Origin: Octopus vulgaris
Lineage: Eukaryota
Direction of reading: 5' to 3'
Assembly (NCBI GenBank): GCA_951406725.2
Contig: OX597831.1
Span: forward strand, 63,364,001-63,428,000
Length of the DNA stretch: 64,000 bases
Shown: positions 11,061 to 62,195 of the stretch, piece after piece
Numbering within the stretch: the stretch's first letter is position 1
How the letters are laid out: each line of letters opens with the position of its first letter
The notes under the pieces: generated by a model
Told to the model about the DNA's origin: nothing
The model's database searches: none
The model's input: the letters and a program-made list of their open reading frames with translations, nothing else
Made by a program: the position numbers and the translations under genes

Positions 11061-11189
11061 AGCAGAAATTCAACAAAACCTGTTACTCGGAGTTTCACGT
11101 TCCCGTTCGTCGGACAGTTTGTTTCGTTAAAACTGTCCGACGAACGGGAACGTGAAACTCCGAGTAACAGGTTTTGTTGAATTTCTGCT
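11061..11189. repeat. Perfect 60-bp inverted repeat with 9-nt spacer
   Basis: 11061-11120 is the reverse complement of 11130-11189. Confidence 0.95.
11133..11170 (+). ncRNA. Minimal type I hammerhead motif with CCGA core variant; mirrored on - at 11080-11117
   Basis: ctgt CCGACGA acg ggaa cgt GAAAC tccga GTA acag: stem I 4 bp, stem II 3 bp with a GGAA loop, stem III and a GUA triplet. Confidence 0.65.
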
Positions 11190-11582
11190 GCTTTTAAATA
11201 AAGCATATTACTCTACCTCTGGTATTTGAGTACTCGTTTTTCCACCTTTATGTGTTTACTCCGGTATAGCTTGAATCAGAAAGGGACACACACACATATA
11301 TATATATTATATGCTTATGCATGTGTATATGTATGTACGTGGGTTTATGTCCATATGATGCGCGTCTATGTGTATGTAAGGGTCAGTATGTTTGTGCGTG
11401 TTTGTGTAGGCATTTAAGCAACTCGCGTGTTTACATGATTATTATACAATTAAAACTGATGGTAAAATCTGAATAAAGACCAATCGCGGCAGAAAAGAAC
11501 TAGAAATGGTACCGTATTTATATGTGTGTGTGTGTATGCATATATATGTGTGTGTTTGTGTGTGTGTGTATATATATATATT

Positions 11583-11960
11583 TTTTACTTGTTTCAGTCA
11601 TTTGACTGTGGCCATGCTGGAACACCACCTTTAGTCGGGCAAATCGACCCCAGGACTTATTTTTGTAAGCCTAGTACTTATTCTGTCGGTCTCTTTTGCC
11701 GAAACGCTAGGTTACGTGGGCGTAAACACACCAGCATCGGTTGTCAAGCGATGTTGGGAGGACAAACACAGACACACAAACACATACATACACATACATA
11801 AATATACATATATACGACGGGCTTCTTTCAGTTTCCGTCTACCAAATCCACTCACAAGGCTTTGGTCAGCCCGAGGCTATAGTAAAAGACACTTGCCCAA
11901 AGTGCCACGTAGTGGGACTGAACCCTGAACCATGTGGTGGGTAAGCAAGCTACTTACCAC
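11583..11960 (-). mobile_element. SINE family A copy
   Basis: Reverse complement of 2144-2560. Confidence 0.88.
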
Positions 11961-12083
11961 ATGTATATATCATTAATTAATAAAGTTCAGGGTAGCAAAA
12001 AAAAATTTAGAAAGATTCTTTGCTACCAGTGGTCTAGCGAGAAGAAAAAAACTAGTCAATAGTCTATATGTTAATCATAGAAA

Positions 12084-12289
12084 AAATACAGTGTACATTT
12101 AAACACATCAGAGATGGCCATAATAGGACGTCTGACTCGCATGGTACAGGAAATAAAGGGTAAATGTTTTTATTTTTCATTCCCTTTCGAAATTACTCCT
12201 AATAGTGGTTTAGAATTTAACTACTCTTTCTAGCGAGTCAGATGTCCTCTTATGGCCATATCTTATGTATTTAAATGTACACTGTATTT
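12084..12289. repeat. Diverged fold-back (57-bp arms) adjoining (TA)n
   Basis: 12084-12140 pairs with 12233-12289 with several mismatches. Confidence 0.8.
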
Positions 12290-12348
12290 ATATATATATA
12301 TATATATATATATATATATATATATATATATATATACATATATATATA

Positions 12349-12817
12349 TTTCTTTACTACCCACAAGGTGCTAAACATAGAGGGGACAAACAAGGATAGA
12401 CAAAGGGATTAAGTCGATTACACCAGTGCGTAACTGGTACTTAATTTATTGACCCCGAAAGGATGAAAGGCAAAGTCGACTCCGGCGAAATTTGAACTCA
12501 GAACACGTAACGGCAGACGAAATACGGCTACGCATTTCGCCCGGCAGCCTAACGATTCTGCCAGCACGCCGCCTTAAAGGGGCTATATATATATATATAT
12601 ATACAAAGGGGCTAAACATAGAGGGTACAAACAAGGACAGACAAAGGGAGTAAGTCAATTACATTGACCCCAGTGCGAAACTGGTACTTTATCGACCCCG
12701 AAAGGATAAAAGGTAAAGTCGGCCTCGGCGGAATTTGAACTCAGAACATAACGGCAGACGAAATACGGCTACGCATTTCGCCCGGCGCGCTAACGTTTCT
12801 GCCAGCTCGCCGCCTTA
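12349..12817 (-). mobile_element. Two adjacent SINE family B copies
   Basis: About 12349-12575 and 12606-12817, separated by (TA)n. Confidence 0.88.
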
Positions 12818-58859: not shown

Positions 58860-59413
58860 TATTTCTTTACTGCCCACAAGGGGATACACACAGAGGGGAC
58901 AAACAAGGACAGACAAACGGATTTAGTCGATTATATCGACCCCAGTGCATAACTGGTACTTATTTAATCGACCCTGAAAGGATGAAAGGAAAATATACAC
59001 GCATACCCGTGTATATGATTTTATATATATACTCTTTTACTTGTTTGAGTCATTTGACTGCGGCTATGCTGGAGCACCGCCTTTAGTCGAGTAAATCGAC
59101 CCCAGGACTTATTCTTTGTAAGCCTAATACTTATTCTATCGGTCTTTTGCCGACCCGCTTAGTTACGGGGACGTAAACACACCAGCACCGGTTGTCAAGC
59201 GATGTTGGGGGTACAAACACACACAAACTCACACACACACATATACATATATATATACACATATACGACGGGCTTTTTCAGTTTCCGTCTACCAAATCTA
59301 CTCAACCCGAGGCTATAGTAAAAGACACTTGTCCAATGTGCCACGCAGTGGGACTGAACCCGGAACCATGTGGTTGGTAAGCAAGCTACTTACCACACAG
59401 CCACTCCTGCGCC
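58860..59413 (-). mobile_element. SINE B 3' half (58860-58990) and SINE A copy (59030-59413)
   Basis: Family motifs in reverse complement. Confidence 0.85.
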
Positions 59414-59913
59414 TATATATATATATATATATATATATTAATTGCAGCGTGGAAGGTGTTTATAATCCATTTAAGAAACACACAAAAACCGTTAGATTCA
59501 CTTCCACATCTAAATTTAATTTGCCATAATATATTCGTCGCTTTGAGACCGCAGCCTGTTCAATGATAAATCTTCGTACTGCAGCACTCGCTATGCAAGT
59601 GCATCTCCGTATATATATATATATCATATATCATATATCATATATAACATATGTATATACGTGTCTCTGTACACACATTTGCACATCAGTCTGACTGTGT
59701 ATCGGTCAACAACTTTGCATGATATTTACGTATCGGTAAACACAGACAGTATATATATAGACAGATACAAAAATATAATATAAATATACACGTTTGTGAA
59801 GCTGACAGAATGATTGATTTTTTGTTTGATGATGAGATTGTGGATTTGTAAATATATACAGATTCTTACGTTTGCATGTCTGAGGTAGTTAGAGACAGAT
59901 AAACGCATAAAGA

Positions 59914-59995
59914 GATAGATAGATAGATAGATAGATAGATAGATAGATAGATAGATAGATAGATAGATAGATAGATAGATAGATAGATAGATAGA
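59914..59995. repeat. (GATA)n tract
   Basis: Direct reading. Confidence 0.95.
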
Positions 59996-61572
59996 CAATT
60001 AAGCAATAAATAAGCGATAATCAGATACCAGATGAGGGGTATAGACAGAAAAGTAAAGAGAACGTAATACCACACAGAAGAGGAGACAAAAAATTAAATT
60101 AGTTGACAGGAAAATAGACTAAGAGACCAAACCAGTTGGCGAGCAGAAAAAAGAAACATGCGCAAGCAAACAGACTGATATCTCTCTAAGATCGTTGTTC
60201 TTATTCTACAAATTATATTAAGCCAAACCCTCACTACCAGTGTTTTCAGATGTAAATGAAGGCAGGCTTAATAATGTGCTGCTTCGATAATGGCGTCTGA
60301 TAAAACGGAAAGATTTTCAGCTGCTATTTTGCCAGCTATTCCTTTTTTATCTTTTATTTTTAGTTGGTCCAGTTATTTGACAGCGGCCATGCTGGAGGCA
60401 CAACCTTGAAGGGCTTTTCTTCGAACAAAGCGACCCCAGTACGTACTTTTATTTAAACTTAGAACTTATTCAGTTGCTAAGTTACGGGGACTCAGGGACG
60501 TAAACACAGCAACACCGGTTGTCAAGCGATGGTGGCGGGGAGAAACACTAACACAAGGACACACAAACACACACATAGATATGTGCATATATATATATAT
60601 ATGTATGAGAGAGTATTGTAGTTCGCTTGAAGCATTGTGCATTGTAAGTGTTGGAAAACCGATTATAGCAGTGACTCGATCAATTCCTAGGAATATCTGA
60701 AGAAGGAATTTTTGTATACCGAACTATTATTATTATATCAGACTATGGATAATTAAGTTATAACAGTTATTACAGGCAACCAAGATACACTATCATGGGT
60801 AACTGGAATACTTTCTACGAGGAGAGGAGAGACTATACACCTTTGTTTTCATATCGTATATCAGAATTTAATTTTTTCCGGCTATTCTATCACCCTATAA
60901 ACTTATGATGCTGCCTCAAATAACTCACAGTTCATACTTCCACTTTTGATCAAAAACTACTCGCTAACACTTAATATGATATAAACTGTGGTATTTATAT
61001 GTCTTCTTTAAAGAGTATGCCTCTGTGGTAAATATTTAATTTAGATTATAGACTAGACCAAAATAAGTGGAATGCATGACTGGTTTACAACCGTGCTGGC
61101 GTTATACTATAACAGTAATTTCATTATAGGCTCAACGCCATTTAAATGTTTACCTGTTGGGTTAAAAAACATTTCTATGATACACATTAAAGTTTTTCAA
61201 AAACATTTCTTTTCCAAGGTCATGACTAGCAATTTGTAAAAGTTTGTAGTTGGTTTACAGCAGTGTCTAGTATGTCACAGTTATGCCATCAGACCTACAC
61301 CTATGAGCACATCCATTATTAAATGATAAACAAAGCAAGGAGTAAACATGTAAACAAGTTGTCGTCTCCTTGGTGAATATCTAGCATGTTCAAACATTGG
61401 CAGTAAATGTCAAAGTGAATAAAGTTGAATCTGAAAAATGTTAGTAATGGCTTGTGCTAGCAAATAGTAAATGCAAACAGTTTATGAAATGGAATTAGTT
61501 TACTGTGAAGCAGAAAAGAGATATCACAAGTTTTAGGCAAAGTCCTTCATTGGTGTGATAAGAAATGTACGC

Positions 61573-61950
61573 GGCGAAATGGTAGAAACGTTAGTACGCC
61601 AGGCGAAATGCGTAGCCGTATTTCGTCTGCTGTTATGTTCGGAGTTCAAATTCCGCCGAGGTTGACTTTGCCTTTCATCCTTTCGGGGTCGATAAATTAA
61701 GTACCAGTTACGCACTGGGGTCGATATAATCGGCTTAATCGGTCTGTTTGTCCTTGTTTGTTTCCTCTGTGTTTCCTTGTGGGTAGTAAAGAAATAGGTA
61801 TTTCGTCTGCCGTTACGTTCTGATTTCAAATTCCGCCGAGGTCGATAAATTAAGTACCAGTTACGCACTGGGGTCGATATAATCGACTTAATCCCTTTGT
61901 CTGTCCTTGTTTGTCCCCTCTATGTTTGGCCCCTTGTGGGCAATAACGAA
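61573..61950 (+). mobile_element. Dimeric SINE family B with 15-bp TSD
   Basis: ATAAGAAATGTACGC at 61558-61572 and 61951-61965 brackets both units. Confidence 0.9.
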
Positions 61951-62160
61951 ATAAGAAATGTACGCCATTAGCAAATTAGATATAAGGTCACATATTTTCA
62001 TAAGGGTGTGAGAGAAATAGTAAAAGGAAAGTTTGCATTAATTTCTACTTATTAGCGTTGGTGTAACTATATGTGTATAGTTGCATTCAAAATGTGACCG
62101 CGTGTGTATCGCTGGTGATTTTTTTCCTGTCTTCCTTTCTTGGATCTTTCCTTTTTCTAT

Positions 62161-62195
62161 GTTTCTGACGAAGAGCTCCGCTCGAAACGTTAAAC
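62161..62195 (+). ncRNA. Minimal type I hammerhead motif
   Basis: GTTT CTGACGA a GAGC tcc GCTC GAAACGTT AAAC. Stem I is 4 bp, stem II is 4 bp, and stem III is reduced to the palindrome AACGTT. Confidence 0.7.

Follow-up and report, generated by a model that had tools for sequence, protein, structure and literature searches.

Hammerhead inserts beside (TA)n tracts in an Octopus vulgaris locus are most probably a mixture of truncated Penelope-like elements and non-LTR retrozymes

What writes short, hammerhead-bearing inserts into the (TA)n microsatellites of an octopus genome, and are these inserts one class of element or several? The question is raised by a 64,000-nt stretch of Octopus vulgaris DNA (contig OX597831.1, positions 63,364,001 to 63,428,000; G000:C18:63364001-63428000), called here the window, in a genome of 2.8 Gb and 227 contigs. 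An earlier note had listed ten sites in it with the layout of a type I hammerhead ribozyme and had grouped them as one diverse class of fold-back mini-retroelements, either retrozyme-like or dependent on Penelope-like elements (PLEs), whose hammerheads lie in pseudo-LTRs (pLTRs; LTR, long terminal repeat). Our analysis points, with good confidence, to a mixture of truncated PLE 3' ends and non-LTR retrozymes, both likely written into (TA)n by the reverse transcriptase (RT) and endonuclease of PLEs. The feature is real and abundant and was rightly linked to PLEs and retrozymes; the class is not new and is not defined by fold-back. The papers cited below by identifier, PMC11167929 apart, were available in part, and what is said of them refers to those parts.

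Each of the ten listed positions lies only a few bases from the start or the end of a hammerhead-like layout. The fuller description, a CUGANGA core between three intact stems, held at three of the ten sites only, where the literal core and whole stems are kept (24409-24490 on the minus strand, 24953-25011 and 62161-62195 on the plus strand); the other sites have variant or damaged motifs. Motifs with U4C that are otherwise intact lie at 11133-11170 (plus), in its mirror at 11080-11117 (minus) and at 26272-26316 (minus). Three sites (16674, 18862 and 48346) hold damaged copies of their families: U3:A8 replaces the CUGANGA core at 16674 and 48346, the window copy at 16674 has a mismatch in stem I, that at 48346 has GGAA in place of GAAA, and stem I is broken at 18862. 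Their relatives are mostly intact, with 15/20 copies of the 16674 family, 9/20 of the 18862 family and 33 intact motifs across the fetched loci of the 48346 family. The final descriptor admitted C3:G8 or U3:A8 and either U or C at position 4; position 9 could be followed by as many as two additional bases, and the stem II region could reach 75 nt. Its first form was too strict (one match) and was widened on the window and the fetched families before being applied to an unbiased sample. The final descriptor was passed by six motifs at five window sites, against a mean of 0.05 and a maximum of 1 in 100 block-wise dinucleotide shuffles. An Rfam scan gave no hammerhead family among the best 150 of its 352 matches, which were microsatellite and hairpin artefacts.

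The two remaining sites are of another kind. The 21953 family has U at position 6, CUGUNGA (A6U), in 13 of 16 copies, and the 55038 family has U at position 9 (A9U) in five of eight, with none of 20 copies passing the descriptor. A core with paired positions 3:8 and three stems is found above chance, and these two families lack it; because their core changes are family-wide, both are doubtful as ribozymes. Natural hammerheads with U3:A8 and with U4C are known, and one with A6C was of low activity (PMC3088659). A coding relative of the 21953 family (locus L264:5310-5340) keeps the U6 as well, with the motif otherwise intact, and judged by its letters the U6 may be either a natural core variant or the mark of a dead motif under other constraint. 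In many families the stem II region spans 50-70 nt and stem III is a 6-nt palindrome, beyond the reach of minimal descriptors (L179, L055, L110, L157, L269, L311 and others).

Abundance was estimated in an unbiased sample of 740 kb, made of 200 kb next to the window plus 54 stretches, each of 10 kb, taken at round-number positions on 29 contigs. It holds 42 motifs (35 with C3:G8, 7 with U3:A8) and five shuffles hold none of either type, so that motif density stands well above shuffles both there and in the window. The remaining 14 pairings of positions 3:8 gave four matches, which is the shuffle level, and thus the covariation was not built into the search; stem III is palindromic in 32 of the 42. 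In the 54 scattered stretches there are 23 separate insertions with intact motifs (about one per 23 kb, 23 in 540 kb), roughly extrapolated to about 119,000 genome-wide (bootstrap 78,000-166,000), and copies of the ten families in any state lie about one per 14 kb (54 in 740 kb). The earlier figure of some one insert per 6 kb describes the window (10 in 64 kb), a rich stretch; the genome as a whole is sparser. Across 1.59 Mb of loci, many of them chosen by family, 220 motifs fell into 32 clusters, 17 with at least two members, a count of diversity only. All ten sites belong to multi-copy families; single-copy inserts had been named as a refutation. Eight families were searched genome-wide by DNA, taking the best 40 scored matches of 683-4,250 candidates each, the 48346 family was searched by protein, and the 21953 family was counted from fetched loci (12 in 740 kb). 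The copies fetched were those with the highest scores and make up a small fraction of each family.

Six of the sites have been compared with the ends of coding PLEs, where the clade labels were assigned from motifs and not from a tree:

46948-48170, plus strand: broken coding remnant of a Neptune-type PLE, with RT residues 254-578 of an intact relative on the plus strand and residues 199-251 inverted at 46948-47106.
48200-48510, plus strand: 3' pLTR of the same Neptune-type PLE, with a U3:A8 hammerhead at 48346-48381, an end at 48432, (TA)22 and a tail at 48477-48510.
24364-24545, minus strand: family F insert, a Hydra-type PLE 3' end with an intact hammerhead at 24409-24490 (53-nt stem II region) and a short inverted tail piece at 24510-24545.
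11050-11264, no single strand assigned: family A insert, a Hydra-type PLE 3' end, with an inverted arm (11050-11120) to the primary 3' end and a direct arm (11129-11264) with tail.
21890-22053, minus strand: family E insert, sharing homology with the 3' terminus of a second Neptune-type PLE (L264, L150, L219), with a hammerhead-like motif at 21954-21987 (A6U).
62061-62290, plus strand: family D insert of about 230 nt, with an intact minimal hammerhead at 62161-62195 and a GUU triplet; one of the two most abundant families.
54874-55270, minus strand: family I insert, from an old AT-rich family, with an inverted arm and a hammerhead-like motif at 55036-55123 (A9U core); parent not found.

An RT followed by a GIY-YIG endonuclease, on the same strand and upstream of the hammerhead end, was shown for sites 48346, 24409 and 11133. 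The sequence at 48346 is the terminal repeat of intact RT/GIY-YIG elements of 784-785 aa; these are flanked by (TA)n and carry the U3:A8 hammerhead at each end. Many intact frames are found among the relatives of the window element, with an upstream open reading frame (ORF) and tandem and inverted arrangements between TA tracts; in L103 one hammerhead repeat stands at both ends as pLTRs, and in L095-L096 tandem copies lie 4.4 kb apart. The parent carries DKG and a CxxxxCxxC linker, and the window remnant at 46948-48170 is split by an insertion and has its endonuclease part deleted. In longer copies of family F the 24409 motif lies 282 nt downstream of the GIY-YIG ORF, and the end is present in 30 of 30 loci fetched by that ORF, in 27 over most of its length; the linker of this parent is Asn-rich, and CxCX5C was not seen there. 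For family A, coding sequence was absent from the first 24 relatives, and long copies extend 5' as unique 3' untranslated region (UTR); a search with this UTR part led to RT and endonuclease fragments in L328, L336, L338 and L333, and in longer relatives RT and GIY-YIG fragments lie some 1.2 kb upstream (L328, L327, L336). The A parent has a CxCX5C linker, and CxxC...CxH is found around E and N in the A and F parents alike; these are motifs described for the Hydra clade.

In L264 and L150 the second Neptune-type element keeps ORF, UTR, hammerhead and TA junction in collinear order, and a close relative of site 21953 terminates a coding element in three of 35 loci. Site 62161 aligns to the same 3' end more distantly, an exception to the claim, which otherwise stood, that most sites have no primary sequence in common outside the core. 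Three neighbours each of families D and I were separate insertions or ambiguous. At least three of the ten sites are 5'-truncated 3' ends of coding PLEs, and five probably are. PLE ORFs beside copies of family I (L265) and of family H, described below (L264), were considered as parents and rejected, as they finish in their own 3' ends or in microsatellites.

The coding elements themselves merit description. Young Neptune-type PLEs form at least two families with many intact frames, of 784-785 aa and of 781 aa (L103:2013-5614; L093-L112; L348, L353), and both use U3:A8 hammerheads. In the 784-785-aa family a separate ORF, about 440 aa long and with no Pfam match, precedes the RT frame and overlaps it as if joined to it by a frameshift. 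Most family A copies start within about 15 nt 5' of stem I, though the parent has more than 1 kb of UTR upstream (window 11129; L114-L137); this cluster of starts is a truncation hotspot at the ribozyme and not at its predicted cleavage site. In some copies a splice-acceptor-like AG stands at the start point.

The other four sites present a different structure:

16513-16940, plus strand: family B insert, unit of about 360 nt, with an inverted arm at 16513-16638, a direct arm to the tail end and a U3:A8 hammerhead at 16674-16714.
18705-18949, minus strand: family G insert, a 5'-truncated piece of a unit of about 545 nt, with a hammerhead at 18860-18922 (34-nt stem II region).
24625-25155 (left boundary approximate), plus strand: family H insert, unit of about 478 nt, with an inverted arm to 24806 with tail, a direct arm at 24811-25155 and an intact hammerhead at 24953-25011.
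26108-26625, minus strand: family C insert, unit of about 352 nt, with 1.1 units at 26108-26493, an inverted arm and tail at 26508-26625 and an intact U4C hammerhead at 26272-26316.

In these families the sequence 5' of the hammerhead re-enters the family's own 3' end, and direct repeats of fixed period were seen for B (about 360 nt, 8/20 loci), C (352, 15/20), H (478, 7/20) and G (545, 3/20). No repeat of the element's period was found in A (25 loci), D (12), F (20) or I (20). The units are non-coding, with 29-42% GC and a longest Met-ORF of 30-83 aa, no PLE protein match lies within them, and a PLE ORF was found upstream in 0/27, 0/26, 0/31 and 0/25 loci of the four families (109 locus hits). 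Folded as circles and compared with 40 shuffles, B, C and H are well paired (z -6.0, -5.3 and -7.5). By structure, as read from their sequence, B, C, G and H are non-LTR retrozymes, and it is to these four families that the earlier note's claim of non-autonomous retrozyme-like units applies. Its reservation that novelty would be lost if every insert were the truncated end of a catalogued PLE bears on at least three sites and probably on five.

It could be argued that all ten sites are 5'-truncated ends of coding PLEs and that the short closed units are rare by-products of deletion that never spread by themselves. This is true of A, F and 48346 and probably of E and D, and since the fetched copies are few, parents of B, C, G and H could have been missed, as the parent of A surfaced only in a second, targeted search. 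What makes this account unlikely for the whole set is that in 33 of 80 loci of B, C, G and H, spread over many contigs, upstream sequence leads back into the tail and the preceding unit at one fixed period, whereas that of family A continues as unique 3' UTR, and that the whole unit of family C is homologous to that of a further family, found in the random stretch L053 (identity in 207 of 364 columns), which argues that the short form persisted and diverged. L053 holds a seven-unit array of this relative of C (L053:2097-4768) with an inverted arm and units about 99% identical; it is bounded by (TA)n on both sides, its ends fall at unit positions 205 and 252 (204 and 250 in C), and it looks like one recent insertion event. 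Among the tail-to-tail alignments only that of C with the L053 family was significant.

RNA evidence was sought for family C. Contigs from runs guessed to be RNA cover the family, and their depth falls across the hammerhead; this drop was rejected as a sign of cleavage, three large runs that are probably DNA showing the same drop. No circle joint was seen in the family C contigs of those runs, and in the inverted arms of B and C the 5' ends do not pile up at the predicted cleavage site.

The two kinds of insert share a pattern of ends. Copies of the coding families end 3' in two clusters (25 + 11 of 41 for the 48346 family, 26 + 29 of 64 for F, 27 + 41 of 72 for A), and so do the units (18 + 17 of 40 for B, 16 + 16 of 35 for C, 14 + 13 of 35 for H, 12 + 13 of 36 for G), where bins were pooled and the longer cluster of A, F and G lies at the end of the reference, which meets TA in that copy. 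The two-ended pattern is clear in these seven families and weak in I. A PLE protein assayed in vitro nicks both strands of AT-rich DNA and begins reverse transcription at two internal sites, and the stretch between them, the tail, has been called unique to PLEs (PMC11167929). Since the 3' ends of the retrozymes abut (TA)n at two constant points, as in the tail signature of PLEs, these elements are likely mobilised in trans.

Inversion is part of the same pattern. The five long inverted repeats reported in the window are present, and 24409 adds a short inverted piece; one arm of an inverted insertion often ends at each 3' point, and the inner breakpoints vary. The earlier view of one class of discrete fold-back mini-elements, whose RNA would be a hairpin with hammerheads on both strands, draws on the five of ten window copies that are inverted repeats and on the short arms of family A, centred near the hammerhead in many copies. 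Arm lengths and centres vary copy by copy, however, 11 of 54 unbiased insertions are inverted (26 of 238 in controls) and only 1 of 25 in D and E, and three of the families have coding parents. Since the inversion points differ per copy, fold-back is not a trait of a class, and this view, already largely refuted, is extremely unlikely; there are two kinds of element, with inversion a variable of each insertion.

The association with (TA)n was also upheld. Within the window, (TA)4+ lies within 230 nt 3' of eight of the ten motifs; it is 420 nt from the 55038 motif, and none occurs within 600 nt of 62161. In the unbiased sample 34 of 54 insertions have (TA)4+ no more than 30 nt from their 3' end, compared with 24 of 238 among three control repeats, which supports the TA preference; (TA)5+ within 350 nt was seen on the 3' side of 26 of 36 motifs and on the 5' side of 15 of 36, the value for random positions being 24%. 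TA tracts are common overall (15 per 10 kb, 3.6% of bases), and the genome has many LINEs (long interspersed elements), for example at window 31426-33801; the units might accordingly spread as satellites, or by RNA-to-RNA replication with the RT of another retroelement, TA adjacency reflecting tolerated insertion sites. We consider this very unlikely, given that TA stands at the exact junction and on the 3' side, that control SINE-like repeats (SINE, short interspersed element) seldom end at TA, and that two fixed ends with inversions fit the PLE pattern. Taken together, the existence of many families, real enrichment and dependence on PLEs are supported. Different hammerhead families were also seen stacked in series through shared TA tracts (L008:1250-1900; L103:6170-6450).

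We therefore return to the mixture of truncated PLE ends and retrozymes, and hypothesize the following course. The GIY-YIG endonuclease would nick (TA)n, and reverse transcription would have two fixed internal start sites, separated by 50-150 nt and situated about 70-210 nt 3' of the hammerhead, thereby defining the tail. The cDNA would mostly abort early and leave short stubs, and extension of both nicked strands would give an inverted pair with one arm ending at each start site. Retrozyme RNAs, as circles or uncleaved multimers, would carry such start sites and be copied in trans by PLE enzymes, sometimes over more than one unit. A circle or an uncleaved multimer is the expected template because the starts lie well 3' of the hammerhead and copies cross the cleavage site. 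Hammerheads with a palindromic stem III would be predicted to cut as dimers, releasing units from long transcripts, and new copies would create or lengthen TA tracts and so come to nest in one another.

Several observations weigh against this reading. Among 24 GIY-YIG loci there is no coding partner homologous to B, C, G or H, and the tails of these units are unrelated to those of three coding families; a young Neptune-type family has only core and stem III letters in common with B. Family G folds no better than shuffles (z -1.7). Tandem hammerhead pairs are rare (B 2/20; C 3/20, two distinct loci; H 1/20; G 0/20), so most copies would be unable to release a unit, and a two-base variant in L053 is common to non-adjacent units, in better agreement with a multimeric template, or with later conversion, than with a single monomer circle. 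The own coding parent of family D was not found among 37 loci nor that of family I among 24, and the 5' ends of D are grouped in a span of about 25 nt, a pattern also expected of a discrete SINE-like element. Finally, hammerhead cleavage was dispensable for insertion in the one PLE tested in vitro (PMC11167929).

The remainder of the window (GC 36%) is rich in microsatellites and SINE-like repeats, and no host gene was seen among its ORFs of at least 120 aa. Further multi-copy inverted inserts adjoin TA tracts at 10026-10205, 12084-12289 and 54017-54824; relaxed scans of the stretches examined there found no hammerhead, only a CUGAUGA half-core at 54017-54824, and these inserts are possibly the ends of other PLE families, including ones that lack hammerheads. 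At 25286-25572 lies a perfect palindrome with 126-bp arms centred on (TA)28, with GAATT-type subrepeats, a third partial copy and a few relatives at other loci. The LINE at 31426-33801 (plus) has an RT frame of 791 aa with zf-RVT, a second non-LTR RT fragment lies at 42003-42938 (plus) and a mariner-type transposase fragment at 53110-53643 (plus). TTAGGG-type repeats occur within a dispersed repeat family at 6985-7053 and 46260-46299, far from the chromosome end; the family is also present at 2765-3199.

Previous studies of metazoan hammerheads place these results. Cervera and De la Peña (2014, PMC4209133) described minimal hammerheads that are dispersed singly and belong, within one genome, to many unrelated families, and the octopus inserts agree with theirs in the type I motifs in pLTRs, mostly single truncated PLE copies, opposite-strand pairs 100-700 bp apart, an additional base following position 9, a palindromic helix III and U3:A8 covariation. 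They differ in number, about 10^5 extrapolated insertions here against about 2,000-9,000 motifs there, obtained with differing descriptors, and in that several families here have stem II regions of 34-70 nt, frequent U4C and family-wide A6U or A9U. For Neptune and Hydra PLEs, Craig et al. (2021, PMC8557442) reported inverted 5' copies, tails and (TA)n targeting; the order of RT and GIY-YIG, the linker motifs, the (TA)n targets, partial tandems, inverted 5' copy and tail are alike here, whereas tails measure 40-150 nt here and 30-40 nt there, and the F parent departs from the Hydra clade in its Asn-rich linker, with no CxCX5C seen. In Anolis Poseidon (Frangieh et al., 2024, PMC11167929) two internal start sites likewise bound the tail, with the hammerhead upstream of them, and the target is AT-rich, cleavage on both strands having been seen in vitro; Poseidon is a coding element of another clade, while here the pattern of ends is found on non-coding units.

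Non-LTR retrozymes, for which PLEs were proposed as the mobilising partner (Cervera and de la Peña, 2020, PMC7229834; Li, Clavereau and Pollet, 2026, preprint 10.64898/2026.07.22.740005), share with the octopus units non-coding, low-GC, head-to-tail organisation (350-545 nt), one type I hammerhead and well-paired predicted circles. Mussel units measure 350-390 bp in these sources, and the G unit of 545 nt exceeds the 150-450 bp of PMC7229834 and falls within the 51-972 bp of the preprint. Unlike animal retrozymes described so far in those papers, the octopus copies are mostly dispersed pieces of 0.7-1.3 units with two constant 3' ends at (TA)n and 5' inversions. In their available parts both papers base the PLE link on co-occurrence and on homology to pLTRs, and report neither a signature at insertion ends nor targeting of (TA)n nor cephalopod data; for retrozymes of other species circular RNA and cleavage were demonstrated, the octopus units being known from genome sequence. 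A curated octopus repeat annotation counts 190 Penelope-like families (6.83% of that genome) and 893 recently active unclassified SINE families (PMC13282606); its main text, as available, makes no mention of hammerheads or ribozymes, nor the one supplement examined of hammerheads or retrozymes. No prior description in cephalopods was found in the literature searched, Repbase, Dfam and most subscription papers being outside reach.

That animal retrozymes are mobilised by PLEs has so far been a hypothesis, argued from co-occurrence and from homology between ends. The retrozyme copies described here show PLE start sites, inversions and TA junctions, and intact PLE frames of 784-785 and 781 aa exist in the same genome, so that donor RNA, start sites and candidate enzymes together make the pairing directly testable. 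We think it fairly likely, though with less assurance than for the mixture itself, that unrelated retrozyme families bearing the PLE tail signature and inserted into (TA)n in single events, in a genome with some 100,000 hammerhead insertions and young intact PLEs, amount to genomic proof of SINE-like passengers of PLEs. If true, about 100,000 hammerhead insertions would exceed the counts reported for the published genomes compared, as far as the available parts of those reports go. For annotation, tens of thousands of pieces now filed as unclassified SINEs, as resembling MITEs (miniature inverted-repeat transposable elements) or as adjacent to simple repeats may be PLE ends or retrozymes, and the natural core variants U3:A8, U4C, A6U and A9U, with the long stem II, offer a ready set for ribozyme assays. 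Further attention is best given to the non-coding retrozymes that bear the PLE tail signature and to the intact candidate enzymes.

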